Assembly: GCA_008632985.1 (NCBI GenBank)
Contig: QPGO01000225.1
Span: forward strand, 1 to 64,000
Origin: Psammoneis japonica
Taxonomy: Eukaryota
DNA length: 64,000 bases
Direction: 5' to 3'
Shown: positions 6,001 through 60,420 of the stretch, piece after piece
How positions within the stretch are numbered: the stretch's first letter is position 1
How the letters are laid out: each line of letters starts with the position of its first letter
Program-made: the position numbers and the translations under genes
Notes under the pieces: model-generated
Seen by the model: only the letters and a program-made list of their open reading frames with translations
Told to the model about the DNA's origin: nothing
Database searches by the model: none

Positions 6001-8170
6001 AGAAATGCATGTCTCCGTGCAGATGATTGGGAAAACACACCAAGGGATTGAACCTTGAAGCTCACTCCTTGCCTCACAAAGCAGCTTGTCTTTTTTGCAA
6101 CTTGTTGAATCAGTCCAAAGGCTTGTGCTGCAGAAACTGACACAAAAGAGCGTCGCAGTGACTTGCAAACAAATGCCTCACTGCAAAGGCATTGGCCACA
6201 AGCACAAATCTGGCACTGGGCATGACCAACAGCCCTCAAGGAGAAGGAGATGCATCCTTCTGTTGCATCCTTGAGGAATGCACCCACTTTGGCTGCTGGC
6301 TCCAGCAGAGATGTTGCTGCTTTGCATGGCAAGCACAACATCTCTTCTGTGGTCGAGGGTGCAACTCTGCCAAAATTGCAGTTGGCGCTGCTGTTGCTCC
6401 CAACCAAAACCAAAACAGAGACAACAGTTTGCATGTGCAAGAATCTGCCAGTGCATCATCTGATCCAGCCCATGCCACAGTCCAAATGCATGGTGCAAGG
6501 AGCCACCTTGGCAATTTCTTGCAAGCTGGGAACAAGACATGGTGCTCTGGTGGGAAACAGCTTTCTCAGTCATCCAAAGCAATGGAGACGAGGGTCACCA
6601 TTTGACAACAGACTTTGACTCCGGGGCTGGACTTGTCATTGGCAACAGATGCATCATTGTCATCATCATCCAGGCACTGCATGAGCTGTGCAAGGAGAGA
6701 GAAGTCAGCATTGGGGTGGCTGGAGGGGATCCCAAGAGTGCCAGCGGGATGGCTGTTCCATTTCTTTCTTTCTTTTGGAGAGCAAGAAGGAACCTCATTT
6801 GAAACAAAACAATGATGCAATGCAGTTTGAAAAGAAAGTTCCAATCTGGGGCTGGCAGGGTCTGAGAAAAGACTGGCCATTGGCAGATCCAAAGCTGCTC
6901 TTCTTCCAGCCATTTCCAGGCAGACCAACCCATGTGGAAGAGGCAAACTGTTCTTTCTGTTTCGGCTTGAGGCACCTGTGCATCAAGTCATGAACTCTCA
7001 AGTGGACAATTGCCAAATTCTTCATTTTCTGGCAGTTGAGATTCTTGCAAGTCCTCAAAAATGTGTTGCGCATCTGCTCTTGCACCAGCTCACAACAGCA
7101 GGCTGTTTTTTCATTCTTCAGCAGATTCTTTGCTGCACTGCACTGGATTGAACTTTGGCGCTGGTGTCAATGCTGCAAGCACAAACATCTTTGGCTTCAA
7201 GCACTGAGAAAAGACAAGCTTGAGCCAGTGGCAGGTGTTGCCAAACTTGGACTCAAGAACATGAGGGAGGAAAAGAGTCCTCACTGTGGATGCAGCAATG
7301 CTCTGAGTCTGTGCAACAAAATTGCTTTGGCAACGAGGGTGCTCTTCTGCAGAAACATCGAGCAGCTGCAGAGACTCTAGACTCAACAAGCCAGCACATG
7401 CAATCCACCATGGCTGTCAGGTTCTTGCCACAGCATGGGAGGTTGTTGAAGGCCTCCAAAACTTTCTGGTGCTGAACCACAAACTGCCCTGTGGCCTTCT
7501 CTTTCTTCTTGTTGTCCAACTTGCAGGTCCAACCATGGCTTCAAACACAATGGAGCCCACATTTGCATCCAAGAGATTGACCTGCAATGTCATTGACAGC
7601 AACCACTTGCTCAAAAAAGCTGCACAATCCATTCTTGGGATTGTGCTGCAAATGAGGCAGAGCTGGAAAGCCGGTGGTGGGCTTCCACGTGAAGCCAGCA
7701 ATGAAAGCCTTCCTTGCCATTTGCGCCTCTGTTGTCCTCTTGAGTCGACGTTTGGCAACACAACATTGGCCATTGCAGCTTGCAAGTGCAGCTGCATTGT
7801 CATCCTTCTCAATGACTTGCAAAAAAGAAGAAAGGAAGCTGGCAACTCCGGCCTGTCTGCACTGTTCCCATCATGAAGATGCTCTGGGAAGCCACAGAAC
7901 CAGACCGACTCGGGATTGTTGGGATCCACATGATTGTTTTCTGTTAACTTGATGACAGCGTTGAACATTTGGCTGAGGTTGCATCCGTTTCCATCATCAT
8001 TGCTCGCAACCATCGAGTTTTAAATCCCTCAAAGCTGAGTCCTTGCTGTTGAATGCAAAGGTGTGTGCTGCGCCTGACATGCCGCTGCCACCCTGTGACT
8101 GGCTGATGTCTTTCTCTTCTTGGCCAAGGTGTTTGCACAGGAGGGGCATGGTCCAATGCTTCACACAACA
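1..8170. other. TpA/CpG-depleted hypermutated domain (decayed repeat or TE sequence, family not identified)
   Basis: TA is very rare over 8 kb and CG is rare, with TG/CA in excess. ORFs in all six frames are nearly Tyr-free and Cys/His-rich. No coherent protein family recognised. Confidence 0.8.
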
Positions 8171-10338: not shown

Positions 10339-10808
10339 GAGCTAATAAAATCAGACATGAATAGATTCAATATTCATTTTCCCGCCCTTTTTTGACGCGC
10401 GGAAATTCGAAAATATCCAGTATCGCTAAAATAGAAGATCAAAGATCTCATTGCGCTATAGCTGGCCTGTCATTTTTTGTCCCTCCAAATACAGTATGTA
10501 CAGTACGTACATTTTTCCTCATGAGGGACTACAACAGGATTACCAACAAGATTTGGCGCGTTCCTTTCGCTTTCAAGTTCTTTCTGAGAGCTAATAAATA
10601 CAGATATGAATGGATTCAATGTTCATTTTCCCGCCCTTTTGACGCGCGCAAATTTTAAAACATGGACAGTGCATTCAAAAATGTGTGCAGTGTCGATAAA
10701 ATCAAAGATCTCAGTGCGCTGGCCTGTCATTTTTTGTCCATTTCCTCATGACTGCGACTGACAACAGGATTGCCACCAAGATTTGGCGTGTTCCTTTCGC
10801 TTTCAAAG
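10339..10808. repeat. Imperfect ~240-bp tandem duplication at the island/hypermutated-domain border
   Basis: Shared blocks GAGCTAATAAA, TTCATTTTCCCGCCCTTTT, ATCAAAGATCTCA, GCTGGCCTGTCATTTTTTGTCC and TTCCTTTCGCTTTCAA at ~10339-10577 and ~10588-10808. Confidence 0.85.
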
Positions 10809-13276
10809 ATCGACCATGGCGCCACCTCTGAAGCCTCCCAAAACACAGGAAGATGCAAAGAAGGCAAAGCTCTCTTTTGTGACCAACTTCTTCTCACAAA
10901 AGGAACGTTGGGTGCCCCTGCCAACCCAGAAGTTGGGGCAGCACACAAGGCAACAAAGGAAGGGTGCAAAACACAGCGCCTCTTGCAGCAGCTCCAGCTT
11001 GTTCCAGACAAGTTGAGCGAGATGCAGAGGTGAAGATCTCTTTGTGCATGTGATCAATTTTCATCACAAGATTCCAAGTGGCATCTTGTGGGCCTTCTGC
11101 ACATCTTGGTGCTGACTTGGGCGGCACTCAAAACAAAAGACTGCTTCGGCCCTTTTCCTCTGAATGCATCACATTGAGAGAAGTGCCGTGAAAAAGATGC
11201 TGGGGCAGCGGGGCCAATCATCAAAATGACAGCACATCATCTCAGCCAAGGTTGGAATGACAGGGGTTCAATGCGGAGCTGCGAGTGTGCTGCGTGGACA
11301 GGCCAGGCTCAAGAGCCGGCTCTGGAGAGCAGGGAGCTGGTGTGCCCGTGGTTTTCCCATCATGTGGCAAGGTTGAAAGCAGTTGAAATGCTTGGAAGAT
11401 GCAAACAAGAAGAAAGAAATGAGAGCCAAGCTGCAAGAGCTGCTTCCAGCTTCAAAGGCAAAGTTGCAAGAGAAGAGCGGTGACATCAGGAAGCCACACA
11501 CAAGAGGGGCTTGTGTGCCAGGTTGGGTTCTTGGAGCACAAGAGCTTGTTGGAGAGGCAGCCCATGCTGCGCAAACTCCTGAGAGTGCTGCCAGCACATT
11601 CCCAGAGCTCCTTCAGCTGTTTTTTGCAGCATTTCTTGGTGCGCCCATGCCCAATCTTTTCTTGCACAGCCACTGCATGGCTCTCTCTTTTTCTTTTTCT
11701 CTTTTCCTAGCACTGTGCTTTGCTCCACAAATGAGCCCCTGTTTTGACCCTTCTTCAGCTCTTCTTTCATTTTCCCACACAAGCGCAGCTGCATTTTCCA
11801 TCTGCTCTCCAGCACCAGCAGACCAAATGCCATGTCACTTGCCAGAGCCAGCCTGCTCTTCAAGCAACACTCAGCTTTGAGCTGGCTTTTCCATGTGACA
11901 CTCATGATGACAGCTGGTGAGAAGCCATGCACCTCCCCATGTTTCCCTCAACTGTTGCCCTTCCTCCAAGGGCTGCACCTTGCCATTGTTTCCTGTTTGT
12001 TGGCTCTTCTTGTTGAAGCTGAGCTGGCCTGTGTGGGCTGTGCACACACAACACAAGGTGTGTCAGCATTGGCCAGTGGCACTTGCCCCAGACAGCATCT
12101 GTGTCAGCGCCCATCTGCAACAGCAGCTTCTGCTGAAAAACTGATTCTTGAGTTCTCCACCAGCACTCTCATTTGACATCTCCTGTGTTTGTGCTTTGTC
12201 GATGTGGCGCGTGGCACATTGACAAGCTTGGACAACACAGCAACTCTCCAGTGCAGTCTTGCCCCTGCTCCTTGCTTTGCCCCCAGGATGTCACAACTTG
12301 GAAGCTGATGGGGAGATGGAGATTTTGAGCCAACAAGCCAATGTTGCCAAAAGGGAATCCTGTGAGAGGTTTCCTGTGCTGCTCTTTGCACTTGCCCTGG
12401 TTGCTGTGGCAGCTGTGATTTGCCTGGAAGTTCTCAATGAACTCCAGTCTTGTGACACAGCAAAGCCTGCTGATGCCACAGCACAATTTAAGATTGGCCA
12501 CACAAAAAGGTGCCAACGGGTGCTCTCGAGCTCCCAAAATGTTTGTTGAGAAAAAGCGCCCAGAACGCAGTCGCATGATGAACAATTGTTTTTTGTGCAC
12601 ACATGTGTTTTCCAACAAATTGCTTTGACCATTGAAGTGTTTTACCAGCCTCCATTCATTGGGAAACAGGAATTGATGAACAACACACACATGGCCAGAA
12701 AGCGCTCAATGAGAGCTTTCGATTAGTGTCCACACCTGAAAATTGACCATTCGAGCTGTTTCTAGCTCTGTTGGCACCTTTCCATGTGGCCAGTCTCATT
12801 TGTGCAAAGCAACCAGATGATTTGCTGCAAAGAGCAGGACAAAAAAAGGTTGGTGAGATTGGCAATGAACCCACACTTGTTGGCAAAGCAAGTGTCACAA
12901 AATCCACCATGTCAGCATCCAAAGCATCCTCTTGTGAACAACTCCAGTGCCACTTCCGGGTTCCACATGCTTCCTGCTCATTCCCAAAGCTCCAACACAC
13001 TCATGATGCTTGCAACCATGTTCCACTGTTCACATGACCCATGCTCATTGGGTTTGTCATTGTCTTGTGACAGCCTGCCCATCACTCTTGGTGTCATTGC
13101 CACCTGTTTCAGGACTCTTTGTGTCATCCTGCAAGCTGCAAGTTGCAAGCGTGCAAATGCACATGCTTGCCACTGTTGCTGCAATCAACCAAATTGTTGA
13201 GTGCACGTGCAGCTCCATCAACACTCTTCACAAAATGCTCCATGTGAGTTGGACAAGACTTTTCTCTGTCATTTTG

Positions 13277-13663
13277 GGCACAGTGCTGCTTCTCAAGTTT
13301 CAGTGGTCATCGAGTCTCATGGCAGAAAAACACTGCCAGATTTCTGGTGTTGATCTCTTGTGCAAGCGCACTTGTTCTGTCTCCAGGAATCAGCTCCCAG
13401 GACTTGCCAACATGATCATGATGAGACTTCTTTTCACTCCTCTTGCTCTCATCTTCTTGACCTGTTGTTTGGTCCATTGCTGAGCCGCCCACAATTTCTG
13501 GAGTCAAATCCAGGAATGCCATGTTGGCACAGTGCTGCTTCTCAAGTCTCAGCGGTCATTGGGGCTCATGGCAGAAAAACACTGCCAGGTTTCTGACATC
13601 AATCTCTCATGCAAGCACACTTGTTCTGGTGTCTCTGGGAATTGGCTCCCAGGACTTTCCAAA
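13277..13663. repeat. ~135-bp direct repeat pair
   Basis: GGCACAGTGCTGCTTCTCAAGT...CTCATGGCAGAAAAACACTGCCAG...CTCCCAGGACTT at ~13277-13410 and ~13527-13663. Confidence 0.85.
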
Positions 13664-16600
13664 ATTCTTTGGTCTTGTCTGCTTTTGCAGCATGTTCCAC
13701 AACTCCAGACACATCCTTTTGCTGCCAAAGACAGAGACAATGATTGGAGCAGCAGCGGTGATGTGCTCATGTGCTTCACAACTTGTTCCCTTTTCCACTG
13801 GGATGAAGTGTGCAGCCCTTTGTTTCAAGGTTGACACCTCAGATGGGTCAATGGCTGGCGGGCCAAACTTGGGTGCAGGTGATGCCATCATCTTCAAGCA
13901 AAGGGAAGTGGCAACTGGTTTGCCTTTGTGGGTCAAGAGCAAGATTCTGGTGAGGTTCTTGGAGCAAAAGAGCTCAGCATGGAGTTTGTCTTGTGTTTCT
14001 TTGGCTCAGAGGGTGGCAAGGGTGCTGGAAAGGGGGAAGTGATTGGAAGTTGCTCAAATCTTGTCATTGGCAGTGAGGCAGTGACTTGCAAGGGGGACTT
14101 GCTCCTGAAACTTGTTGAAGGTGTGGCACCTGCTGGCAACAGGGGCGGTGACATTGGGGGGCTTTCTGGACTTTGATGGAAACATTCTTGCTGCCACCAA
14201 GTTTGATGGTTGCAAACTTGGCATCTTCAGAAATGATTTTCTCAAGAAAGGAGCTTGTGCAGCAAAAGTGCTGCTGTGCCCCATGTTGTTTGGTGCCATG
14301 CAAAGGTGCCTTCTGGCACCACTGGAGCAGCAGCACTGAGTGATCCATGTAGCAACAGCCTTGACTTCTGCAGCAACCCATTTTGTTCTCTGGCGGCAGC
14401 AAATTTGAGCTCATTCAACTCCCAAATCTGCACGTGAGTTGATGCAGGGAGTGGCAGTTGGCTGACTCCCAAGGTGGGTTCACACAAGCAAAGAATTTTT
14501 CCATGATTTTCAAGCAGTTTTTGATGTGTGGCACTTTTCACCTTTGAGCTGACAGCCTCCACACATCTCTTGGTCAATGAGAAAAAAGGACCTCTTCAAC
14601 CTGTCTTGCAGCAAAGTGAAACATGGAGTTTTCTCTTTGCAACAGAGTGGAAGGCAGTGCAATGAGAGCTTCCACAAACTTGAAGCCAGGATTTTCCAAC
14701 TCCCCAGAGTCGCTGGTCAGAACAATCTTTTGAGATGGTGACAATTGCTTGCCCATGTTTTGAGGAGCTTGTTGCACAAAGGAGTCAAGCACTCTTGCTC
14801 AAAGAAGAGCTTTGACCCCCATTGCTTGCTTTGGAGCAACCCACACACTGTGGCAATCCTTCCTTGGAAGGGAGAGCAGGTTGCAGCTCCACATGAGATT
14901 GGCAAGAGATTGCAATGGACTGACCAGGCAAGCTCTCCAGCTCAAATTGCTTTGGCAACTGCAACCCCCTGACAAGAATGGCAAAGAAGGAAATTGAGCA
15001 CTGAAAAATGTTTTGCAATCCCGCAGCTCCTGAGCTGGTTTTCAACAATGGCTCCTCCAGTGCTGGCGTGCTGGTGCTGGTGGCTTGCATGGCAACAGTG
15101 ACTGGGACATTGAGGATGCTGTGAGAACAACCATGCTGCACTTGAAAGCAGAAAGGGTCCACTGTGATTTTGCAAGTTTGTGAATTTGGTCTTGTTGCTC
15201 ATGTTGAAAATTTGTTCATCTGCCTGCTGCACTTGATGAGCTGCAGCCCCCCACCCACCAGTTGACATCTGTTGGCTGGTCTGCCTTTCTTCCATGCACA
15301 TTGGCTGGCACATCTTTCAACTTCAAATTCTGCCTCCAAATTCTGCCAACATTTGAAGTCATGATGATCCTTCAGTCAACTGCCAATCCTCTGCCACCAC
15401 CTCCATCAGGGCCCACTCCTCCAAATTGCAGTGGCGCCAAGGCTTGCTCAGTCCTGCCATTCTGCCAACCACCATTCTTGTGACAAGAAGACTCCGCTGC
15501 ACATCAAGCAGGCTCTCCACAGAGAGGGATGGAGCAGACATTGTCAAATTTGGTGGCAACAATCTTCAGCTCTCCAAGCATTGCTCCAATGACCTTGATC
15601 AAGCTCATTTTGTGCAAGCTGTTTGCACTCCTGTCAAGGATCATCACAGCATGGAGAGTTCCTTTGTCATGCGCTTGGGTTCCATGGTTGTTGATCTCCT
15701 TGCTGTTGCCAAGAGCGGTTGCTTTTCCAATGTTGCTGCAGATTTCTGCACTGCAAGCATGATGATGTCACCCTGTTGCAGTCGGTTGCTGAGTCTTGAA
15801 CATCCTGTTGATTCAGGGAGAAGACCAAGGTCCAGTTCAGGCATGACAATCTGCTCCAGCATTGTCCTGGGCAGGCTCACATGACAATGGCAACAGATGC
15901 TTGCAACACATCTCCCATCCATGACACTGCACAAGCCGCCAAGGATCTTGAAGCTCTGTTGCAACAATCTGTCTGTCCCAGCAAAGATGTTTCCAAGTTT
16001 GCTGCTGAAGAACTTTGTCTCACCAAGCTCCTTTGATCCAGGCACATGTTGCCCATTGGATTTGGATTGGATGTCCTGAATCACAGTGAGGTCTGCAAAT
16101 GTTGGATGAGGTTTTGCTCATGAAACACAAGTGTTGCCTTGGCAGTCCCAAGACACTTGCCAGGGACTCTGACTGCAATGACCTGGGACCCACTGTGTGC
16201 ATGCATTGCACTCCTTCAACAACAGTGCTGGCTCTGCATTGCTGATGAGGATTGGCCTGGCTTCTTGACTGAGCTCCCCCCTCAGAGCCACAATGCCTCC
16301 AAAATCTGATGACAGCAGTGCCCAATGCTCCTGTGGAACCACAGCAGACCACTGGGCTGGCTGGCACAACCCCAGAAAAGTGTCCCAAGAATGTGGAAGA
16401 ACAACAGAAGCAAAAGAAAAAAGTGCCAGCAGTGATGGCAGACAAAAACAAATGGCGGCATCTCTCCTGCTGCTGCCAACACCTGCTTCCTGCATGTGCT
16501 GCTGCCATTGAAATTGCCCCTGCTGAGAAACAAGAGCCAAACTCAAGGAGTTGCTCACACCAACAGGCCCCGTTGTTGCACCCATCTAGAGGATCCCACC

Positions 16601-17499
16601 AAGCCCATTGTGAGCAAGTCTGGTTTGACCTGTTTCTGTGAAAAGTGCACTCTTTCAAGCACACTGGCGACACAGGGATGTGACATGCACAAATCACAGG
16701 AAACTGGACCACACTCACAAGCTGCCCAAGCAAGAGCAGCTTGTGGGTGACCTCACCTTCATCAACCATCAACAACCCATGCTCAGGCACCCACCTGGGC
16801 TGGCCACCCAGACTGCCTCAGATCCAACTGACTCACCCAGGGATGCTCCTGTTGGTGGCAAGGAACCAGTGTGAACTGGGCTTCATTGTGCTGCAGTCAA
16901 GTGTCCATCCCCTGCTGGCTCTGCACCAACTGCACAAGTCTGCTGCAAGCCAGCTCCTGCATCTCAGAGGGAGTTCACCAAGATTGTTGTCAAGAGACTG
17001 TTGAGCCTGAAGATGCTGGTGACTGCAGCATTGCTTCAGCAGCTGTGGCGACCTCTCTTGGGACAATGCTGGTGTCATGCTCCCCAACAAGGACCCTCCC
17101 ACAAGCCAGTTGGCACCTCCTTGACAACTCTGCTCTACCTGCCACAGAGCAGCACTGCATTGATGCCATGTCCAAGCCAAATCTGGCACCTGACGTGCTG
17201 CCTGGTGCCCCAAGCTTGCACCATCTTTGCCTGTGGCATCTGCTGAGGATTCTCTCCCCACCATGTCTGCCTGCTCAAATGTGCGCCCACCCTGTGTTGC
17301 CATCCCTGCCATGAGGGTGTCATTGCAAGCACAGTTGCTCCATGGCAATTTGTGCACAGTGGCTGGCCACACTCTTTCCCACCCCTTTCAGCCCTTTAAC
17401 TCCCCATGCTCTCAGCAGACTCACAATTTTGTCTCTGCTCTTGATGGCTGAGTTGACCTGTTGCCCAGTGTGCTCATCCAGCGCTGCTCTCTCAAGGCA

Positions 17500-19930
17500 T
17501 GACACAGCTCAAATGTGAGTTGGCGGTGCACTCAGACAGAGACAAGAATGACACACCCACTCTGCCTTTTGATCTTGCCAATTTGATGGAACTGAGTGAT
17601 GACAATGATTTTGTTGAGGTGTGCACACAGCCACCCACTGATCAGGAGTGCTTTTTGATGATGAGATGCTCCGCAACACTGACTGTTCTCCAGTCTGGAC
17701 ATCTTTGGTGCTTGAGGACAACAAGCTTGAGAGTGTCATCAAAACAAATCTTGAATGTTGTGGACTCAGTCACAAGTCAACCATGCCTGTTCTTCAAGGA
17801 TGAGATGATTTGAGTGGTCTGTGTTGATGATGCCAGTCATGCTGGAAAGGACAAAGGATCAAAGCCCTGGGGGTGCAAGATGAGAAACAACATCATGTGT
17901 TTGAGTTGCAAAACAAGCAAGAAGTTGACAATTTTCTTGGTGTCAAGATTTGCAAGACTGCAATGGCCCCAAGGAGTCCTGCTCACCCAGTCTGGCTTGA
18001 TTGGAAGGTTCTCAAGACAGCTGGTGCAGAGAATCACAGGTCAGCTTCCACTCCGTGTGCCACTGCTCCATGTCACAAAGATGAAAAAGCAGCCAAATTC
18101 AACAAGAGCTGCAATTGCCATGTTCCATTGTTGGTGTGTTGATGCATCTCATCAAGCTGCCCATTTTTCCTGCACTCCCAAGCACTCTCACATGGTTGGG
18201 GCAAGAAAACATCATGCTCCATGGCATTTGCAGGGTGCTGGGGACAAGGGACTCTGCCCATGCCCTGGTGACAACAAATGGATTGGCTGCTTTGTTGGTG
18301 CCAACTTTGCCAGCCTGTGCGGCCATGGGAAACTTGGGCTTGTCAGCAGATTGTCTGTGTGTGCCAGAAGATTGACTTTTTCACTGTGAAACCACTTGCT
18401 TTGAGCAATGAACACAAAAATGCTTTTAAGTGGGGCGCACTCCCTTGGCTGCAACAAAGAACACGGCAACACACACACACCACAAAATGCATTGAAAATC
18501 ACCTCTTCCAGTCTCTCCAACACACGAGGCAGCTCACATGTGAACCACCCTTGCTTGGCCTCAGCAGCACACCTGTGCAAAAAGTTGCAGAGCCAATTTT
18601 TTCCTGTTGGCCCCTTGGAGACACAGCCAGAGAAATCATTGTTGAGTGGTGACAACAAGAGACTGCTTGAATGAAAAAAAAAAGATCAGCAGGCAGCAGG
18701 GGTCAATCCTCTGAACCAAACAATTGATCTGCTGGCCCCATTTTTCCCACAATGACCCTGTGGACCTGACTGGCATCAAGTCTTGCACTGGGCACATGTC
18801 ATCTTGGGTCATGAGTGTCTTGTTCTGTGGGTTTTCATGCTGCAGATGCAGGTCATGCTTTCTGCTGTGGAGGCTGGCTCTGTTGGCTGTGATGCACATC
18901 AACTTAGCTCCAATTTGTGAAATTTTGAAAGGATTTCAGACTCACACATTTGGGGGCAAGAACTGCAAGACACCTGCCACTGCCAAATCCAGAGCCTTTT
19001 CAGATGCAAAGGAAGGCAAGATCCCATCCTTGATTGTGTGCAAGGACAGTCTGACCTCAAGCATGCCTCAACTTTGCAAAAATGACAAAACTGTCTCCTT
19101 GTGCAAAGCACATCAGCACTCCCTGCCGCTTGCTCTGCATGAAGGCAGAGGGAGGAGGCTCTTGAGATTCGTGGCGCTGAAGCTGATCCTTTCCAAGAAC
19201 GTGATGAGTGTTGTTTCAGCAACTGTGCAAGGTTTGTGCCACCCCACAGAGTCATGGCTGCCCACCAGCATGCCTCTTCCATCAGTGGTTTCTCTGGTGG
19301 CCCAAGTGCCTCCCACTCCACCTGCAGCACACCAACACAGCCTTCTCTGTGGCGTCACCAGCCCCTTCACTTTCATCTCTGCCCCAGGTGGAGCCTTCTC
19401 CAGGTCCTCTCTTGTCAGACTTGCCTCAGAGGGAGACAGCCCCACAGACACCACACAGTGCAAGGATCAGCCCTCTGTTGAAGCCCTCCACTCCCCAGAG
19501 CCTCTCTCTCATGGACCCAGCCAAGAGAGGGAGTTGCCTCAACCACTTGCACAGAGGAAGGAAATGCCTGCCACTCCTCCTCCCTTGCATTTGACTTGAT
19601 CTCATGCTCCTCTGCAGTGGCGTGGGCATGATGGATCCAAGGGATGTGGCCACTTGGCACACTTTGACAGCTGCATCCATGCACACAGGTTCAATCATGG
19701 GTGCTCCATTTCTGTGATTGCTCCCCAGGTCTGCAAGGCCACCACTTGCAAGAACAAGGATCCCAACATGCTGTCATGGGACAAAGCAATGCACCACCCC
19801 AGATCATGAGAAATGACAGCTGAACGTGTCCGCAGCAAAAATTGCTGCCCTTGGGCAACAAGACACATGGGCTGAGGTCCCTGCATCATCTGCTGAGTCC
19901 AGGATGCTCCTCCCTGGGATTGCTCAGCTT
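17500..19930 (+). mobile_element. Ty1/Copia LTR-retrotransposon pol remnants (RT/RNase H), degenerate and rearranged
   Basis: QPCLFFKDEMI*VVCVDDA (Copia DPCLF..YVDD), VDNFLGVKI, LTQSGLI, CFVGANFASL (YVDADFAG), DP..IKSCTGH (KSRTGY), and KDPNMLSWDKAM / KIAALGQQDTW from the RT N-terminus. Confidence 0.75.
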
Positions 19931-22258
19931 GAACATTCGAGACCAGGAAATGCAAAAAAAAACTCCAAAAATTGCCATCAAAGCAGTGATGAAATTGGAG
20001 CTGTTCTTTGTGAAGCACAAATTGGATGACAATGGAGACGCTCCCAACAGAGACACGCAGCTGGTGCATGAAAATCTTCTTGCAACCATCAGATGCACAG
20101 CTGTGATTTTGCCAATTGTAAAAAGTCTGTCAGTTGAAAATTTGGTGGCTGAACTTTCTTCAATTTGTTTTCATGGTGCAAGTTAAGAAGCAGGCAAGAA
20201 ACATTTGAGAGACAAGCATTGACCATCAGTCCATGAACAATTGTGAGTGTGGAAATCACTTTCAATTGCCTCCAACAGCAGTCGCGATGTCCTCTTGCAA
20301 GCAGCCCAGCTTTTGTTTCTTTTGCGATTCATTCTTGCAGGTCCTGGAACAAGACAAGGCATGCACTCTTTACACAAGGTGTGGGAATTAGTGGCACAAA
20401 GGCTCCTGACTTGTTGTCCACAACCCATGAATTGATGAGCAAGCACAAAGTGAAAAGCACTGTGCTCTGTCGAAACATGAGACCAAGGTGCATGAGATGG
20501 ATGTGAGTGCAGTCTCTCTTGAAGGTAACCTGGTCATCAGGGTTGCAGCACAATGAAGGCTCGTCATCCACAAGTGCCAGCCAGTGGCAAATGCCAAACC
20601 CACTGAGTGAGGTGCAGATCTGATGGAGCTTGATTGGAGCACAGCACCTTTGCTTCCAGAGAAGGACTGGCAGAGAAAACTTGACTGACGCAGAGAACCA
20701 TTGGAGTGTTTGACACCACATCGCCACTCAACACCTTCCTCAAGGCAAACCATGCTCTGCCCTTCAATTCCTTCCTGCATTGATCACAGAGCTGGAGCAG
20801 TGTGTGGTGACAAGCCAAGCATTGCCAAGCCAAGAGAGCTGAGAACCTTTGCTCCATGAGCACAAGCTTCCACACAGCCCACCATTTGTGGACAGCAACC
20901 CACTTTCTGGCCAGTGCATCAAAGTGGCAGCCAACAGCTGTCAAAGACTCTAAAAGGCGGCCCTTCTTGCTGCCAACAGCATCAGGTGAATTGGTTTCCA
21001 ACAAGCAAGTTGGGAGACCAGCCTCAGCGTCAACGCAAAGGTCCAAAGCATTGTTGCTGCTGACTTTCATGACAGCGCGGAGTTCAACATGTTGCGGACA
21101 ATCTGGGGGTGTGGCGCCCATCAATTCTTGTTGTCATGAGCGATGATCTGACAACTTCAGCTGCCAATGCTCTTCTCTGGGTGTCCGGCTGTGGCAACCT
21201 TGGTTGCGGCCGCCCGGTGCTCTCACGACACGGAGATGTTCCAGAAATGCCGTCAAGTTTTCTCTGACCAAGTGGTGCATCTGGCCATGAGAAGTGGAAG
21301 CATTGCCAGAAAACATCCACTCTGCACACAAGACTGAACTGGGTGGCATGTTCTCACCACAAAAATTTCCTTCAATGTGGCTGAACTTCAAGGGGGCTCA
21401 GGGTGGGAGTGAACGGGATGTGGCTTTGCCCAACGACAATGGCTGGATGGGATGAGCACTGCTTTGGGTTGAATGATCTGTCCATGGCTCTTGGCTTGCT
21501 TGCTGCAACTTGGCTTGGACAGTTGAAGCTGGTGGTTGATGCGGCCTTTTGCAAGCCATGCCGCTCTCATCATGAACGGTGCTTGAAGACATTCTTGCAA
21601 ACGAGAGAAGTGGCAAAAGCACAAGTGCCACAAGGTGCTTTTTGAGGATGTTGTGCTTGTTCTTTGTTCTTTGGGCCCTCACCCAATCAACCAACCACTG
21701 AGAGCCGCAAGATCCCACCCCCAAGAACTGGCCACTCTCCAACAGTGACGCAGCCTGGCTGCTGCTTTGCCTGTCTCCCAGTTTCATTGAAAGGCCACTT
21801 CAAAATCAACGCCAATCTGGGCAAGGACACACAAGTGTCTGTTGCTCCTGGGCTCCACTTCGTGAGCAGAAGCACCCTGCTGTGCGGCACTGTGCAGCAC
21901 GGCACTGCAGCGGGCGGCGGGCGCCAAATGCGCATTTTGAGACTTGGCATCTTCGCGATGTCTGGCGCCCTGCCCAGCGATTGGCTGCAGGGCGCTTTGC
22001 TGTCCCTGCGTCTCAGCACAGCTGTAGAAAATCGAGAAGAAGCTGCACTCATTTTGAGAAAGGACAGTCAGATCAAGATGTCAGCAGGGCTTGCCACGTA
22101 GACTCTACGTAGCACGCAGTATGTACACCCATCGCCCAAACAGTACATCGTTCACGCGCAGTATCGCGTAGATGTCAGCAGATCTGAGACCTTGCAGATG
22201 TCAGCACTTAGCACAGGCATGTTATGCCGTCTTATCAACAACAACACAAAACAGAATA

Positions 22259-27599: not shown

Positions 27600-30500
27600 G
27601 CAATTTTCAATTGTCAAGTAATCAGATTAGCATGGATTGGATGGGATCTCACGCAACCTTTTCGTCCAAATTGCACACTGGTCTCTTGACCGACTATCTG
27701 GATTGTTGGCATGGCTGACATTGTCAGAGTCACTGTCTTTTGACTGGAAAGTAGGTGCACTCCAGCAACTTCACTTGGAGCTTTCCAATGTTTGCTCAAT
27801 CGAGGGCGTCGACGCCCCGCCCTTCCCTGAGCAGGGACAGGGTCACCCATTCCTGCTGCCAGCTGGGTTTCTGGGGCCCAGGCTCTGGCAGCAGGGTGCT
27901 GCACCCAGGGTTGGGGCTCGCACAGAGGAGGGTCAGGGTTTGGTTGGGGAACACCTGCGCAAATTTGATGGTGAAACCAGAGCTCCAACTGCAGCATGCG
28001 ACTGTCACATGCATTGATTTCAGGCCTCCAACAAATCAACAAAATTCTGCCAACACATCAATTTGGAAAATGAAGCAGATTCCTCTGCCACTCTTGATTC
28101 AGCTCACCATCTTTGAACTGAAACCTTTGTGTGTCAGGACAATTCAGAGGATGCTGCATCTCTTCTAGACTTGGATGAATCAAAAAGCAATCCACCAACT
28201 CTTGATCTTGAATGGTGCAGAATGAGGTGCTCAATTTGGGGCCCAAATTTTCTTTGAGTGATTCATCTTCAGGAGCCACAGCAGTCGGAGGAACAGAAAA
28301 ATCAACAATGGTGCCTTTCAACTCCACTCAAGAACTCTTCCCTTCCATGGTTTTCTCCACATGAGGAAATTGTGAAAAGAAATCAGCCAGAATGTTCTCC
28401 TTGCCCTTGACGCATTCAAACTCAGGTGCAAACAATTCTTTGAGAAAAAGGCACCAACACGAAGCACTCGTTGCGTGTTGAGCATCTTGAAAGTCAAATT
28501 CTTGTGATCTGTGTGGACTGTCATTTCAGCTCCCAACAATGTGGATCAGAATTCCTTGAAACAAAGAGATGCAGCAAGCATTTCCTTTTCCATGGCAGAG
28601 CAGTTCTTCTGAGCTGCATCAAGTTTTCGGGGCCAACACGCGATCAGCTTGCCGTTCTGCGTGATGACAGCATCGAGTTGACAATCGCTTGCATCTGCAC
28701 AATTCTGAAAAGGAAGGTTGTGATCAGGACAAGCATGCAATGCATCACCCACCATTACAGCCTTGATCTCTTCAAAGGCTTTTTGACAAGCTGGGGTCCA
28801 TTCAAAATGTTGCTTCCTGGTCAAATCCGTTGATGGCGCCAAAACGTGCAATTGCCGAGGCCACATGTCACGACAGCAACTGATGGCTCCAACAAAAGAT
28901 CTGAGTTGTGTGTGGTTCTTGGGAGGATCAAGCTTGAGCACTGCCTCTGCTTTCTTCTTCCAAGGCTTGATGCCTTCTGGAGTCATCCAATGTCTCAAAA
29001 AATTGGTTTCTTGAACGGCCCATTTGCACTTGAGCGGATTCACTTTCAAACTTTTTTGCTCTGGTCATTGCAATGCGGCACTCAATGCAGCTAGATGCTC
29101 TGAGCAAACCATGGAGAAGAGACTGACATCATCAACAAAACAATCTGCACCAATCTCATTCATCACTTCTTCAATGACAGCTTGAGCAATGTCTGCCTGC
29201 AGCAGGTTTCAAACCCATCACGAGCTGACAACATTGAAACTTGCCGCAAGGAGCAACAATGGTGCACAGTTCCTTGTTGGACTCTTCATCAAGTTCCAAA
29301 GCACAATGGAACACAGATGGAGGACCCAACTTGGTGAAATGCTTGCACCCCTTTCTCTTCTTGACAATGTCTTGAATTCTTGGCAAAGGACAGATTGGCC
29401 TTTCTCGTCAGGACCTCCTGGCAGACCACAGCCTGCCATGTTGAAGCGGCACACATCTGTGCTCCATTCTTGTGACTGAACATCAGTCGGAGGAGCTCGT
29501 TGAGCCGGATGAGCATTTGGTTCCTCTGAACTGCTCTGCACCTGATTTTGATTTGCGTGAAAATTCTGAGGCAAATTCTGTGGACCGCATCCTCGGCCCA
29601 TGCTGCTCTGGTTGTGACCACAGCCACATCCACCTTGACCATGTCCAAAACCATTGTTGGGGGCACATCCACCACGCCACATCCATGCCCAGTGCAGCTG
29701 GCATTCTGAGGACCACAAAATTGGCCTCCACAATTTCCTCAGCCTGGACATGGATTGCGACCTTGTCCACGACCTGCATCTCGGCCTGTGCTTGGTGAAC
29801 CTTGGCCACCACTCTGAAAATGAGGGTTTGGATTGCAGTTGGGACTCTTGGCATTCTCCCTGCAATTTTGCCACAAATGAGGTGCTGCAGAGTCCTTGTG
29901 CAATCAAACAACAGAAGTTGGGACCAAACCTCTCTTCTTGTTCCCGGCAGAATCCACGTCTCCAGCCTTGCCTTTCTTGGATTCATCTTCAGACTTGCTG
30001 GCACTCTTCTGATCAGCAAACCTTTTCTCATTGAACATGCACTGAACAACATCTTCCAAGGAATCAGTGCTGACATCCTTTCAAGTGCGCACACAATTCT
30101 GCTTCCACATCATCGGCACTCCCGTGAACATGTTGTTCTTGATCTGCTGCTCATTGAGCAAATGCTCAGTTCCTGGCAGCTTGTCAGCATGACATGACAT
30201 TTGAATCATCCTGTCCGCATGCTCACAAGGAGAATCGCCAAAGGGTTCAGAGAAGTTTTTCAAAAATTTAAACATCGCACCACGTGCTTGATGATTGCAG
30301 CATCGCTGATTGAAGCACGCAATTTCCACATCAAACCTGACCATCGTTTGGTCTGCTTCAGCCACACCCGAAACCAAATTGCTCCACATGTCTTGAGCAT
30401 TGTCTTCTGGTGCTTCTTCAAAATGAGTGAATTTTTCAGGCCCTTCATCACAAACCAGATGCCCAGTTGTTGGGCTGTGCAGGCGTGTGTGAGGTGTGAG

Positions 30501-33500
30501 CAGAACATGCGTGGAATCACCACTGAGTGAGTTGACATGCGGCGAATTTTCTGCCTGTGCACAATCTGCATGGTCTGCATGAAAGACAAATTTATGTTGG
30601 TCTCTTGGGGTTTTACATGTCATTGACATTTCTTTGGTCTTTAAAGCGCATGTGCCCAAATTCAAAAAAGTGAGGAACATCCCGAAATGCACTCTAGAAT
30701 CTGAGTGAAAAACATTTATTTGGTGGTCCAAACAGGGTTGTCTTGAAGCAATTCTAAAATTGTTGACATTGTTCAACACAGCCAAACATCCACTGTCACC
30801 AAAACAGAGTGTGGCCATTGGCAAAATGGTGCCCCCTGTCCTTCTCAAACACTGACAAAGCATGAGAACACACAACAACAACATGGCAAGCAACGCGAAC
30901 ACAATTCACGGATCTGCAAGAGTGTGTTTCCAGACAAGATCAAAGCCATTGGACAACATTTTGTGCTTGTTTGTTCCTGGGTCAAGTTGGGTTTCTTCTC
31001 AATGCTTGTTGTCATGTCATTTTACAACATTTTGACCCACCCCATGTTTTTTCGGCACAACTCTCAAAGAATTCTGCAGTGTGGAGTGAGCACTCGATGC
31101 CACACTTGCCGGTGAACTGAGGGCACATTTTCTGTTTCTCAGCGCCACTGTCACAGTTCTGTGCAAGTTTTGCTTTGTCCAAATCTCTGTGTTTGAAGGT
31201 TGGTTTGCACACAAAGCACGTGCCCTCAACGAGGCTCTCGCCAAATGCGACATTGCGTTTGAGGCAAAGAATGCACAGCAAAGAAAAGAGAAGGAAAGAA
31301 CAAGACACAGTGTGATCACAGTGAATGGTCTTGAAAAGTTGTCCATGAATGCTTTCTAAAAATCATGGGAAAAGCTGCGATTGACTGCAGCCACAGTTTT
31401 TGGGTTTCTGTCACAGAATTTCTTCAAGGCATCAACAATCCCCCCCGGTCATTCAAATCTCCCAAATCTTGCAGCTGATGGTGCAACTGTGATGATGCAG
31501 AAGTTCACTTCAATGATGACATGCGTCATTGAGACAAACGTCACTCAAGTGAATCAGAAGAGGAGACATCCCCTTTTCACACATGAGGAATTTGGTTCTG
31601 CAATTTGAGAAAAACTGTCTGATGTGTCCACTGAGGGTTTGTTCACACGACGGTGTTTGAGGGAGAGACATGATGATCATTGAAACATGTCCTTCCACTC
31701 AATTGTTCAACGGTTTTTTTTTTTTTTTCACAAAATGGAAGTGCAAAGCACGAGCACACAAAGGCAGCCCATTCCTTCATTTGATGAAATTTGGTCATCA
31801 TGTTCAGAAGCCTCCTCATCCACCAGCAGGATGTGCCTTGTCTCTGCCCTGTGCACATTCTTGACAGCAGGCTTGAAAGATGGCTGAGCTCAGAAAACAG
31901 GGTGGCAAAAGACCTGCTCTCTAGATTGAGGGCAAGATCATCAACTGTTGGACACAAAAGCAAGAAATGCCACAAAGAAGCAGCAGATGTTCAAATTGTC
32001 TGGCACCCAGCTCTTGTTTGCTTCTGGCTCACACCTCTGGTGGCCAGACAGCCATTGTTCCACCCACAAAAAGGCATGAGAAACATGTCGATCACAATGG
32101 CCTCTCAAAGAGCCCCACTCAAAAACATGAACATGTGATTTGCTTTTGAGATTCAACTTGCAACACCATGCAAACACCACAGTGTTTGTGCTTCAAACCA
32201 TTCTTGTCAACTCATTGTGCAGCACAGCACCTGGGCACCACAAAAAGCTGCCAAAATTGCAAAATGTTTGCAAATGGACACATTTAAATTCCAAAAATCT
32301 GTTGTGCATGTCTGTTGTGTGTGACTCTGTGCTGCTGGCACCACCTTGAGTTGGAGCAGCACAGCACTCTAAAACAGTGAGCCAAGTGTCAGTGAGAGCA
32401 GCAGGCATTTTAGCACGCGAGCCTCATTGCGGTCTTCCAAGCCTCTCTGTTTTCTTCTTGGAATTTGTTTGCTCCATGTGCACTGGCAGAGGAGGGCATG
32501 TTGGGGAATCAGCAGCACGGTGTGCTCAACAAGAAATTGTGGCTGAGAGCCCAGCACAAACAATCACTGCACACTCCCCCACATGGAGACAGCTTTGTTT
32601 TCTGGGTGCAGTGATGGCAGAAGGAAAAAACACAGCAGCCATGAAAGCATGCTGCTGCATTTTTCATTGCTGCACAAGTGGGGCCAAGATGCACTGGCAC
32701 CACAACCACGCCACTCATCATGGACATGACAATGTTCAAATGGTTGACACAGCTTGCATTGCTGCAAAAATCAACCAAATCATGGTCATCACCACAACAA
32801 AACAACGTCAGAAATGGAGCACAAAATTGAAAAGAACCCGGCAGAAAATGTGGAAACCCAGAGGAGCTGCACCCATGACAAGTTTTGACTTTTTTTGCTG
32901 TGGAATTGCTCACTTTGAACAGTGAATGTAAAAATGCTTTGAGCAGAGCATTTCCTTGGTTGCAACAGAGCACATGGGGGCACACACAGAATGCATCAAA
33001 ACTCACCTTTGCCAGCCTCCAACATGCAAACCCACATCATGTGTGAGACACCCTTGGCTTGCCCCAGCAATGCACCTGTGCAAATTTGCAGCTCTGATTT
33101 TTTTCATCAGCCCCTTTGTGGAGATGTGCAGTCAGAGAAATCATTGTTGCACCATTGCAGCAAAAGACTTTTTGAAAAACAACAAAACAAAAAAATCAAG
33201 CTGGGGGGCGACACTCTTCTGAGCCAAATGGCTGGTCTGCTGGCTCCATTTTTCTGGTGTGGTGGGGCAGGCAGCAAGTGCAAGAGAGGAGGAAGGGCAG
33301 GGTTTCTTGGCTGGATCTGCTGGGCTCTTTGCTGGAACAAGGAGAGGCAGCCAGCCCTTGCTTTCTTGCTTTCCTTCCATGTCCCAAAAACAAGAACAGC
33401 TCACAGCTGCTGGTGATGAGTTTTGCAATGGCGTCAGGAGCAAACTTGCTGTGTGTTCCTCACCATGTGATGACTTTGTCAGCCGAGACTGCAAGCTGCA

Positions 33501-33680
33501 ATCACTCATGGCCACAATCCGCGAAAGTGTGTGAGGGTGGTGAGTCAAAGTGCGAAGCGGGCGCTGGACCAAGGCACCGCGTTCCGCGGTTTAGTGGCTT
33601 GCTTGCATGCGCCATCCACAAGTTGCAGCACCGGCAGGTGCAGTGGGGCCCTGGCTGCTCTGCCAGTGGCTGGCAGGCCC
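27600..33680. other. TpA/CpG-depleted hypermutated domain
   Basis: TA nearly absent, contains a Gypsy remnant. Confidence 0.85.
28060..30400 (-). mobile_element. Ty3/Gypsy LTR-retrotransposon remnant (gag-like region, RT, RNase H), frameshifted
   Basis: LPRIQDIV.KRKGCKHFTKL, LELDEES, CFVDDV, KVNPLKCKWAVQETNFL, QLRSFVGAISCCRDMW, FEWTPACQKAFEEIK, DASDCQL, EKEMLA, VHTDHKNLTF. Confidence 0.9.
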
Positions 33681-50929: not shown

Positions 50930-53388
50930 GGGGATGGAGACAAAAAACAAAAAAGGGTGGGCCGAAAGTACGGACAGACGGTCGAGAGGATGAGTTGGAT
51001 GGCTTGGCTGGCGGGTGACAGCAGGATGGCAAAGAAAAGAGTTTGGCATGTGGAGAGATGATCGGAGAGAGCAAAGCCCCAAAGTTGAGGCTGAGGATTT
51101 GAGAGGCCCAGAGTTGAGGGGTTGCAGTGTGACAAGAGGAGCTGAAGCGGTCCGGCGAAAGTTGTTTCCAGGCCGCATCATTGGAGTGGGCGAGGGGGTT
51201 GGAAGGTGTGAGAGCAGGGAGTTGGCGAAAGTGGAGAAGGGTGCTTGAGAGTTGGAAAGGGAGGGTGGGCTTGTCCAGGGTGGTTTGGGAGGAGGAAGGG
51301 GTGGGAAGGAGGAGGATGTTGTGGTGGAGGTGCAGAAAAAGAAGACGTAGAAATGACACCCAACTGCTCCAAGGTGGTCAAATGTGAGAGGAAGGAGGGG
51401 GAGCCCAGCTTGGTTGACAGTGTCAATGACATCAGAGCCATGGGCAGATGGCGCAGAGTGACCAAGAAGCTTGTCCCATGCACTGCTGAGGTGAGCCTTT
51501 TTAATGGGTTTTCAAGGACAGGCAAGCCAGGTGCAGGAGTCGGGGGAGCTGGTGGTGCAGCGACGTCAATGGCCAAGAACTGGTGGGTTGATGGGGCGTT
51601 TGGTGGTGCAGAGCCAGGAATGAGTTGAACACCAACATCGGCAGGGCATTTGAGGGGGTCGTCAGCCAAGAGGTTGGCAGGGTCAAGGTGAGCCAGTTGG
51701 CGGGAAAGGCATGAACCACAAAGAGGGCCCAGTGTTTCGATGACACGGTGCAAATGGTGTCGCAAATGTGATTTGACAGAGGGCCTTCATGCATTTTAGA
51801 TCATTCAAAGGCATGGTCTCTGCAAGGGTCTGGGTGGGTGTGGCTGCATGGGCAGTTGTGCTGGAGCAGATTTGGGGGAATCATTGGAAGGTGCAGCTTG
51901 CACAGGAGGAGAAGCAGTGCAAATGAGTTTGATGGGAGCCGGTTGGAGGCAGGAGCTCAGAAAAGGGAGTGAAGGCACAGGCTTGTTGGCGGAGACAGCA
52001 GGGATGGAAGAGCTGGTTGCATGGAGGGATCTGAGGAAGAGTGCTGTTCTTGTGATGACACAGGTGAGTGCACTGTGCAAGGCCGTGCAGGTTGTGGTGT
52101 TTGACAGCATGTGTCAAAGAGGTGAAAGAAGGACGAGAGTCAAACCACCAAAGGAGGATGTGGGAGTGCAGCAGCGGAAGATGCAACAGAGGGAAAGGAT
52201 GGAGCATGGGTTGACATGTTCCAGCTGCACGTGAACCAAATCGTGCACAAAAATGACTTTTGCGCAATTTCCGTGGGGTCTCTGACTTGCGACCTGGCTT
52301 TCTCCACCAAAAGCACAGATTTGTGCAAATTTGAATGTTTTGCAACACTGACAAGACTCGCGTCAGTGTTGCAACATCATTGCTCATGTGCAATCTGCTT
52401 TTTTTTGTTGCAACAAATGAGCTGCAATGCAACGGATGATTTTTGGTGAAATCATTGCCGTTGTTGTGATGTCAAAATTTTCCTGCGATGATGTCTGGCA
52501 TGGGTTCTGCCTGCAGACAAATCTCTGCACACAATGTGCTGTCATGCAATCAGCATTGAGTCTGCTGAGGAAGTTTGTTGTGCATTGCCCCCATGAGGAC
52601 TTGCATGCCAATGGAAAAACCAATTAAATGTTGACACTCTGGACACCTGCAAAAACACATCCACTCAAGTGTTTCATGTGCAAATGCTCCATGCACGAGA
52701 GACACACAATTTACATTCAAAATTGATTGTTGTTTTGTGCATCACCTGGGACTGGAACACGTTGGTCAGACCATGAGCCAAGAGCAGCAGAGTGGCTCAA
52801 AGGGAGATGAAAGACATTGCCGCGGGTGAGTGGGATGCTGTGTTCAGTGTGACGCATGGATCTGGTGAGAGAGGCTGTGAGAGCTGGGGTGGTGACAGTG
52901 GAGACATCACGGCAGCCGACACTGCCCAATGATTTGGATGGGCTGGCAATGAGTTTGGTGGTGGAGGGGAGTGTGGGTTGGTGTGTTGGGCAAGGCAGGC
53001 AAGGAAATGCAGGGAGCGGCCGATGATTTTGTTGGTGAAAGGAGATGTCCATTGGAAAGGTTGTGGGTGGTTGCTGGATCATTGCACAAGGTTGCAGCAT
53101 GCATCAGCTGACAGAAGATGAGCAATGGAGGGGATGGAGCATTTGCTGAAGAGCGTGCTTTGTGTTTGCTTGTTGGCAAGGTGGGCGGTGAGGTGGTGGA
53201 GGTCTGTGGCAAAGGAGGCAGCTTTGTCACAGAAGAAGTTCATGGCAAAGGCAAATGAGCCAACAGGCCAGCCAAGGAAGCGGATGCTGGCGGTGATTTC
53301 AGGTTTGTTGTGTGGGTCGTTGTTGGGATTGAGAAAGCAAGGGCTTCCAAGAGGGCATTGGCATTGGTGGCTGGAAGGCTGGCAGCCA
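50930..53388 (-). mobile_element. Non-LTR retrotransposon (CRE-like, RLE type), 3' part: RT thumb, zinc knuckle, restriction-like endonuclease
   Basis: IRFLGWPVGS..F, CSIPSIAHLL, FHLPL, NHICDTI (H..IRD), KCPADV...LAIDV (RPAD..DV), LLPLTFDHLGAVG. Confidence 0.7.
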
Positions 53389-60209: not shown

Positions 60210-60420
60210 CATTGAGGATTGCAGGTTCTGTGGCACATTGGTGTCTTGCCAGAGCTGTCAAATGGCTGTTTAACTCCCAACAGTGCATGTGAGTGAGGCA
60301 GGGCCACACTGTACAGCACATGCCAGTGGCTGCCGGCAGTGTCTCTGGCAGCCCTCATTGAGGATCCCAGGCTCTACATGGGTGTCTTGCCAGAGCCGTT
60401 TGACTGCTGTTTAACTCCCA
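60210..60420. repeat. Imperfect ~141-bp-period repeat upstream of the non-LTR element
   Basis: GGTGTCTTGCCAGAGC.GT......GCTGTTTAACTCCCA at ~60240 and ~60381; CATTGAGGAT occurs twice. Confidence 0.7.

Follow-up and report, generated by a model that had tools for sequence, protein, structure and literature searches.

What became of the tyrosines of a Gypsy retrotransposon in the diatom Psammoneis japonica? The question is raised by a stretch of 64,000 nucleotides (positions 1 to 64,000 of contig QPGO01000225.1; hereafter the window), in which several peptide motifs of a Gypsy pol gene read Cys or His where Tyr is normally found. The original prediction ascribed these replacements to transitions at TpA, with TA as the ancestral state. 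According to the account developed here, which we regard as rather probable when taken as a whole, the element is a dead Gypsy copy within diatom repeat blocks that were hit by two context-specific transition processes after insertion. The signature itself, transitions at TpA and CpG, is held with high confidence. In this scheme a first process would convert TpA to TpG or CpA and would have run nearly to completion; a second, slower and still partial, would convert CpG to TpG or CpA. The Gypsy sequences of the window are the following.

28364..29193, minus strand: pol piece b, C-terminal part of the reverse transcriptase plus RNase H (tblastn to residues 786-1063 of the relative P0142, 42-46% identity)
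29201..29404, minus strand: pol piece a, N-terminal part of the reverse transcriptase, in a different reading frame (tblastn to P0142 residues 719-784)
29727..30443, minus strand: weak gag-like similarity upstream of pol (tblastn, P0158 residues 81-306, E 7e-5; P0142 residues 153-259, E 1e-4)

A Pfam search placed RT_RNaseH_2 on 28549-29064 (E 2.9e-16), and the window copy has reverse transcriptase followed by an RNase H of this type, as in Ty3/Gypsy elements. When 1.84 billion representative proteins were searched with a 172-residue piece from the window, 27,334 matches were returned, the best at 54% identity. The full-length relative P0142 shows the domain order RVT_1, RNase H, Integrase_H2C2, rve. 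Whereas relatives carry Integrase_H2C2 and rve after RNase H, tblastn found no integrase match in the window copy past P0142 residue 1063. Pieces a and b are separated by a frameshift near 29197 (29194-29200), and piece b contains in-frame TGA stops at 29065-29067 and 28546-28548 and zero Tyr codons. Self-comparison of the window, in plain and in purine/pyrimidine coding, revealed no repeat pair flanking the copy as long terminal repeats (LTRs) would. The sequence at 28364-29404 on the minus strand is a truncated reverse transcriptase/RNase H remnant of a dead Ty3/Gypsy element. All five peptides quoted in the original prediction are present on the minus strand: ISCCRDMW, DASDCQL and QKNCS in 28546-29064, KGCKHFTKL and FHCALELD in 29171-29407.

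The fate of the conserved tyrosines was read from an alignment of the window copy with 55 relatives, each matching P0142 residues 691-1075 with an identity of 40% or more along 250 residues or more; these were drawn from 150 listed, the other 95 being too short or too distant. Tyr is found in at least half of the relatives at 13 columns and in the window at none of them, the replacements being Cys (8 columns), Phe (3), His (1) and Trp (1), encoded by TGT/TGC, TTY, CAT and TGG, respectively. Conserved residues other than Tyr were kept at 136 of 210 columns (74 lost), against 0 of 13 for Tyr (Fisher p 2.7e-6). The aromatic controls behaved likewise, with Phe kept at 6 of 10 columns and Trp at 5 of 6; losses at these two residues together amount to 5 of 16, compared with 13 of 13 for Tyr (Fisher p 1.3e-4). 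Excluding four Tyr-less relatives (51 left) raised the number of Tyr columns to 16, at which the window reads Cys 8 times, His 3, Phe 3, Trp once and a gap once. The expectations that Tyr had been lost faster than other residues, and that intact relatives have Tyr rather than Cys or His as the majority residue at these sites, were therefore both borne out.

Individual motifs fared less evenly. Both Cys residues of ISCC stand at Tyr columns (Tyr in 31 and 49 of about 50 relatives), as do the Cys of QKNC (43 of 44) and that of KGCKH (21 of 32), and the Cys of DASDC stands at a column whose commonest residue is Tyr (30 of 51). The His of KGCKH, by contrast, occupies a mixed column (Tyr 13, Phe 13, Trp 5), and the predicted mapping of FHCALELD is off by one position: it is the F and the H that align to the conserved Tyr pair (Tyr in 30 of 36 and 34 of 36 relatives), the C being an insertion without counterpart. 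The view that Cys and His arose from Tyr as the two products of a TpA transition accounts for 9 of the 13 columns, and leaves aside those with Phe or Trp (see below).

The lack of Tyr codons follows from the lack of TA dinucleotides. The interval 28546-29390 contains 2 TA where base composition predicts 60.6, the lowest of 2000 shuffles being 38; the Tyr loss is informative through the relatives, which have Tyr at the same columns. A second class of change was apparent at the 14 conserved Arg columns, of which 8 are kept, 3 read Gln (CAA, CAG, CAA), 2 are TGA stops and 1 is Gly. The two TGA stops are the ones noted above and stand in columns where 38 of 55 and 34 of 46 relatives have Arg. Judging from these codons, some of the Cys and His residues and both in-frame stops stem from CpG decay of Arg codons instead of TpA transitions, as such decay makes TGA out of CGA and replaces Arg by Gln, His, Cys or Trp.

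The direction of change was established with the DNA of 80 related Gypsy loci from metagenomes. TA rho ranges from 0.43 to 1.02 across all 80, none being TA-poor. Over the homologous 516 bp, these loci have a median of 5.5 TA per 100 bp (2.6-8.9), compared with 0.19 in the window, and median counts of 8 Tyr (5-11), 2 Cys and 3 His, compared with 0 Tyr, 10 Cys and 6 His in the window. TA is present in half or more of the relatives at 19 sites, and there the window reads TG 14 times, CA 3 times, TT twice and TA never; the substitution type is thus A-to-G/T-to-C at TpA for 17 of them. Majority-TG sites were retained at 18 of 30 positions and majority-CA sites at 13 of 20, against 0 of 19 for majority-TA sites (p 9e-7). 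Since all relatives are TA-normal and the majority-TA sites now read TG or CA, TA is ancestral and was lost by transitions, in agreement with the proposal that the loss is mutational and not compositional. The same figures make it hardly credible that the family was always poor in TA and CG, whether by initial composition or because UpA and CpG were selected against in its RNA. Suppression of UpA and CpG is well known in RNA viruses, which lends that idea some appeal; against it, in addition to the TA content of the 80 loci, stand the replacement of conserved Tyr residues, the state of the copy (frameshifted, with two in-frame stops and no integrase) and the presence of unrelated window sequences in the same condition (see below).

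Some database proteins display the same features. Among the 150 closest representatives, 8 have less than 0.5% Tyr with raised Cys and His (P0125, P0126, P0128, P0159, P0225, P0250, P0271 and P0227). Such Tyr-less relatives have Cys or His at the conserved Tyr columns, and their records come from NCBI, ENA and JGI/IMG. In four of them the ratio of Cys to His at these columns is 5:11 (P0125), 6:3, 4:6 and 8:2. A strand bias linked to transcription had been considered from the TG:CA ratio of 14:3 in the window copy (27:8 when pooled with the tandem units described below); it was dropped, other Tyr-less copies showing Cys:His ratios of 5:11 and 4:6. One might speculate that the strand varies from copy to copy because each episode of mutation affects chiefly one of the two strands.

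The depletion extends far beyond the Gypsy copy. In the entire 64-kb window TA rho is 0.23 and CG rho 0.51, with a blocky distribution: TA rho falls below 0.15 in 200-bp windows covering 44,750 of the 64,000 bases, about 70%. Four TA-less blocks can be delimited.

1..8020, no strand: TA-less and CG-less block reaching the window start (0-4 TA per 500 bp, TA rho 0-0.11, CG rho 0.03-0.34)
10698..22024, no strand: TA-less block holding a BRCA2-like fragment, delimited by composition and boundary
27753..33591, no strand: TA-less block around the Gypsy remnant (17 TA and 101 CG in 5839 bp)
50970..64000, no strand: TA-less block reaching the window end (TA rho 0-0.24, CG rho 0.07-0.77)

These blocks have 0-7 TA per 500 bp (7 only at 60001-60500, elsewhere 0-6). 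Most of their TA rho values lie between 0 and 0.1 (about 0.03) and their CG rho values between 0.03 and 0.8, with 1.4-2.4 for TG and CA and a G+C content of 0.45-0.52, about 47%; near-complete absence of TpA thus goes with an excess of CpA and TpG. Host open reading frames (ORFs) have TA rho 0.34-0.68 and CG rho 0.83-1.28, and the region from 33.6 to 41.2 kb is intermediate (TA rho 0.07-0.34, CG rho 0.62-1.02). The edges of the blocks are sharp to about 100-400 bp, neighbouring host sequence being at baseline; at the left edge of the Gypsy block, densely spaced TA sites stop at 27752, with none thereafter before 28166. The affected sequences include both tandem units and high-copy stretches, and the change is restricted to the repeat blocks. 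As TA loss is complete wherever CG loss has begun, while the reverse does not hold, TA loss must have been the faster or the earlier of the two. In the whole window, 470 ORFs of at least 70 amino acids were counted, with long ORFs in all six frames. A Pfam scan of 114 ORFs from TA-less blocks other than the Gypsy block returned the BRCA2-like match only; no match was obtained for the 34 ORFs scanned in block 1-8020. The only sequence common to different TA-less blocks is a direct repeat, 69% identical, at 18372-18746 and 32885-33254. Short local tandem duplications of about 100-260 bp and 69-95% identity, some of them in host-like sequence, lie at 13267-13665, 44106-44316, 44757-45023 and 10338-10806. 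Comparison of the window with itself in purine/pyrimidine coding uncovered no further repeat pairs hidden by transitions.

Two sets of repeats make it possible to compare sequences that share a chromosomal origin.

33719-37463 and 37458-41201, minus strand: two tandem 3.74-kb units, 98.5% identical, partly TA-depleted
34021-37641, minus strand: open 1207-amino-acid ORF of tandem unit A, 0.6% Tyr
37760-41121, minus strand: ORF of tandem unit B, divided by a 1-bp deletion near 39299 into parts of 543 and 683 amino acids
53380..58249, minus strand: TA-less element bounded by 397-bp direct repeats (53380-53776 and 57855-58249), 90.4% identical

Between the tandem units there are 53 transitions and 2 transversions; of the 50 difference events, 42 fall at pyrimidine-purine steps, for which 47-50% would be expected. 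The commonest pairs are CA/TA (13), CG/TG (12), CA/CG (7), CA/TG (5) and TA/TG (5); grouped by type, TA versus TG/CA makes up 18 events and CG versus TG/CA 19. The 397-bp repeats likewise differ by 35 transitions and a single transversion, and are identical over 341 bp in purine/pyrimidine coding. Pyrimidine-purine steps account for 22 of the 26 events here (CA/TG 10, CA/CG 9, TA/TG 2, CG/TG 1), and 10 of the 26 are of the CG versus TG/CA type. The excess at pyrimidine-purine steps over the 47-50% of positions that these represent gave p values of 7e-8 and 3e-4. A single ancestral TA or CG that was hit independently in each copy would leave CA in one and TG in the other, as is seen at the ten CA-versus-TG sites. 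Because nearly all that separates the members of each pair is transitions at TA and CG steps, the change took place in DNA, after insertion or duplication.

The pair of 397-bp repeats may tentatively be taken for LTRs. Neither a clear target-site duplication nor TG...CA ends were found at them; the right-hand repeat adjoins a word that resembles a primer-binding site, possibly one for initiator tRNA-Met. Between the repeats, a 918-codon open frame (54737-57490, minus strand) belongs to no family and is of low complexity, rich in Thr, Ser, Pro and His; its region has strong G+C and A+T skews (GC skew up to 0.34). The frame may be a decayed coding region kept open by stop-poor, TA-less, T-poor DNA.

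The 1207-amino-acid ORF has two database homologues only (32-34% identity) and no Pfam family, its leads being confined to Mutator-like/DUF6729 (Atlas). At 10 columns where both homologues have Tyr, the ORF keeps Tyr at 2 and reads His at 3 and Cys at 3, while other residues are kept at 151 of 253 columns. Thus, a second, unrelated element has met with the same fate as the Gypsy copy.

The repeat pairs bear directly on the possibility that the changes were made in RNA, by hyper-editing of adenosine to inosine of the kind performed by ADAR, and were fixed by reverse transcription so that copies arrived already mutated. The window Gypsy copy does show mostly sense-strand A-to-G change (TG 14 versus CA 3), and ADARs prefer a 5' U according to the discussion section of Mettrop et al. 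(bioRxiv 10.64898/2026.01.13.699255). Yet the direct repeats differ at 26 events which, if these are LTRs of one insertion (unproven), came later; the tandem units, with their Mutator-like lead, show differences of the same type; His outnumbers Cys in other Tyr-less copies (5:11, 4:6); a host BRCA2-like fragment lies inside a TA-less block; and TA has been lost entirely whatever the flanking bases, which is stricter than the ADAR preference. Since TA and CG steps distinguish even copies that go back to one chromosomal origin, RNA editing before integration is not the main cause, and we consider this origin very improbable.

A further possibility is that no dedicated enzyme took part, and that a spontaneous bias of replication or repair in silenced, late-replicating repeats was joined by decay of methylated CpG. 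TpA is mildly scarce everywhere, host genes of the window included (rho 0.34-0.68), and old blocks could have gathered changes over a long time. The tandem units fit this poorly. Calculated per present-day site, the difference rate is 0.33 for TA, 0.10 for CG and 0.002 elsewhere, so that at a divergence of 1.5% TA sites differ about 150 times as often as other positions and about 3 times as often as CpG. Moreover, in the last 745 bp of the unit (36645-37463 versus 40383-41201), there are 4 TA in copy A against 17 in copy B, and all 14 TA-type differences are losses in copy A (p 1e-4), with none in copy B. The pattern looks episodic and local, and a purely spontaneous origin appears improbable to us. 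The tail of copy A lies inside the array and that of copy B abuts unique DNA, suggesting that targeting spreads over a domain or else spares edges beside host DNA.

It had also to be asked whether the sequence is real, since base-calling errors at modified bases might cause TA and CG to be misread as TG or CA. The interval 26000-34000 is reproduced by contigs of sequencing run X1, whose word depth there (about 57-63x) equals that over the flanking host gene; one of these contigs (26000-28039) spans the block boundary. X1 is from the same sample as the best run containing the window and is not fully independent of it, and its library type is not on record. Nevertheless, these separately built contigs give the same sequence and read host genes normally; misreads on two strands would, we reason, leave TA or CG in the consensus about as often as TG or CA; and Tyr-less relatives occur in the records of three databases (see above). 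An artefact is therefore given next to no credence. The 502 related-copy contigs differ from the stretch mostly by transitions (A>G 16, C>T 18, G>A 21, T>C 18; transversions 14), and the 40 contig differences listed are mostly CG or TA versus TG or CA. No RNA run with the window sequence was found among the sequencing runs listed.

The favoured account of two transition processes has consequences for coding capacity. The TpA process would remove TAY codons (Tyr becoming Cys or His) together with TAA and TAG stops, and would by itself make no stop, so the mutated elements would stay open in many frames and be inactivated through missense changes. It may represent an enzymatic, domain-targeted genome defence, and its chemistry might consist in deaminating the adenine of TpA in DNA to inosine, which is read as G. 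Of the chemistries considered, adenine deamination is the one that we tentatively favour. The CpG process would be ordinary deamination of 5-methylcytosine in methylated repeats. The same targeted hypermutation at TpA could in principle operate through a modified thymine (5-hydroxymethyluracil or 5-formyluracil, made by an oxygenase of the TET/JBP type) that mispairs with G. TA-to-CA and TA-to-TG are one event seen on two strands, hence the sequence cannot tell which base was attacked, and dinoflagellate DNA contains 5-hydroxymethyluracil preferentially at TpA. We know of no modified thymine in diatoms (no search for one was made), the 2OG-Fe(II) oxygenase ORF of the window (41560-42222) matches 2OG-FeII_Oxy_2 and not TET/JBP, and the sole published case of TpA hypermutation favours adenine deamination, albeit without proof. 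On balance the thymine route seems unlikely. Returning to adenine deamination, a bolder extension, which we entertain with somewhat more hesitation than the chemistry itself, is that a diatom defence edits silenced-repeat DNA at TpA (and perhaps at CpG, by the same or a partner deaminase), that it is homologous to the process described in the chlorarachniophyte Bigelowiella natans (see below), and that both descend from an old, adenine-deaminating counterpart of fungal repeat-induced point mutation (RIP) shared across the stramenopile-alveolate-rhizarian (SAR) group. Spreading over chromatin domains would, on that hypothesis, explain why the BRCA2-like fragment and the inner tandem copy were hit while the outer edge was spared.

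The BRCA2-like fragment is described by the following entry.

20567-21133, minus strand: BRCA2-like fragment (Pfam BRCA-2_helical E 1.6e-6 and BRCA-2_OB1 E 3e-4; PDB 1mje E 1.5e-9)

It comprises the helical domain and the start of OB1, within which a stop occurs. Arg residues of mammalian BRCA2 are replaced in it by Gln, Trp or His, and one Tyr by Cys. A word-based search found no longer homologues of this ORF. The locus looks like a host-gene fragment or pseudogene under the same hypermutation; if a host fragment was indeed hit, the process is not limited to transposon sequence. Host genes outside the blocks are of normal composition. The ankyrin/AAA gene adjoining the Gypsy block is 77-78% identical to marine transcriptome proteins, the named matches being all from diatoms. 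Just outside the mutated tandem repeat lie two neighbouring genes on the plus strand, one for a 2OG-Fe(II) oxygenase (41560-42222; 2OG-FeII_Oxy_2, E 1e-7) and one for a SAD/SRA domain protein (42533-43474; E 4e-17). SRA domains read methylated DNA. No link of either gene to the process was seen, and both are probably ordinary host genes.

A number of points weigh against the favoured account. The TA-less blocks yielded just two Pfam matches, the Gypsy RNase H and the BRCA2-like fragment, and the transposon nature of the blocks is drawn from depth (28-34 kb) plus one Atlas lead, so that it is putative for the other blocks. The segment 31874-32941 is single-copy by depth at a likeness of at least 90%, yet it is TA-less. 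None of the 80 metagenome relatives is mutated, so hosts of this family do not share the process as a rule. The strand bias is inconsistent, the window copy having TG and CA at 14:3 on the coding strand and other copies differing (see above). Three Tyr-to-Phe replacements and one Tyr-to-Trp replacement do not result from a single TpA transition; in the columns where the window reads Phe, Phe is a minority residue of the relatives. Finally, the evidence is comparative only, with no enzyme, base modification or de novo event observed.

Natural targeted A:T-to-G:C hypermutation of chromosomal DNA had previously been described in one 2026 preprint, in a chlorarachniophyte. Its trace in P. japonica indicates that the process is not confined to one species, and diatoms are an ecologically dominant and, in genetic terms, more tractable group in which to hunt for the enzyme; a natural TpA-specific DNA adenine deaminase would interest builders of base editors. 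A TA rho near 0 combined with TG/CA excess offers a simple genome-wide marker to date and map silenced diatom DNA. There is also a warning for annotation: with TGA as its only stop, TA-less DNA fills with long spurious ORFs, and public databases already list Tyr-less "proteins" deduced from DNA of this kind, 8 among the 150 closest representatives.

Among known systems, fungal RIP consists of C-to-T changes, mainly at CpA; it creates TpA and TAA/TAG stops, yields AT-rich DNA, and depends on duplication and the sexual cycle. The process seen here resembles RIP in being a transition hypermutation of DNA, governed by dinucleotide context, that inactivates repeats and leaves sharply bounded, skewed blocks. 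Unlike RIP, it destroys TpA, produces no stops from the loss of TpA and leaves G+C at about 47%; C-to-T change at CpA, TpA excess and AT-richness are not features of the window. Diatom DNMT4 is related to fungal RID and its function is given as not known in a 2023 survey (PMC9998398). Methylation-driven CpG decay of silenced transposons offers a parallel for the conversion of CpG to TpG or CpA, and of Arg CGN codons to CAA/CAG or TGA. It accounts for the CG half alone, however, and per site the rate of change here is about 3 times higher at TA than at CG. The APOBEC and ADAR enzymes of animals act on cDNA or RNA during element replication, with a fixed strand bias. They too cripple retroelements by deaminase-type hypermutation with a neighbour preference, whereas the changes described here build up in resident chromosomal DNA and their strand bias varies between copies.

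The closest parallel is found in B. natans. According to the main text of the preprint (Mettrop et al., bioRxiv 10.64898/2026.01.13.699255), mutation-accumulation lines yielded 302 nuclear mutations, of which 231 fell in two integrated viral regions. With one exception these 231 were A-to-G or T-to-C changes; all were at TpA and arose at a rate of about 6e-7 per site per generation, the targets being integrated giant-virus and virophage DNA. As further reported there, the rate is about 1000 times baseline in living lines and variable between lines, and TpA-poor coding sequences are enriched for reverse transcriptase and DDE transposase domains. Adenine deamination is proposed by its authors, with an ADAT2-like candidate, ADAT/TadA enzymes naturally acting on A after U. 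The words 'diatom', 'stramenopile' and 'CpG' do not occur in that main text.

As far as the text of that preprint goes, the two cases have in common that changes are almost only A-to-G/T-to-C at TpA, giving TpG or CpA; that they are confined to foreign or selfish DNA beside normal host sequence; that their long-term trace is TpA depletion with CpA/TpG gain; and that the process appears episodic. The differences are equally clear. The host here is a diatom, a stramenopile, and not a chlorarachniophyte; TA loss is near saturation (rho about 0.03, compared with 0.45 in the giant-virus region of B. natans); where B. natans has integrated viruses as targets, those recognisable here are transposon-like repeats and a host-gene fragment; and the evidence is sequence comparison, where that from B. 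natans is de novo mutation in lines. Moreover, almost no GC-to-AT change is reported for B. natans, whereas CpG was lost here (19 of 50 tandem and 10 of 26 direct-repeat events being of the CG type), probably by a second, separate process. A search of the literature found no report of TpA hypermutation in diatoms. The diatom signature is a second case of a very recently described process, new in its host lineage, its targets, its near-saturation and the CpG decay that accompanies it.

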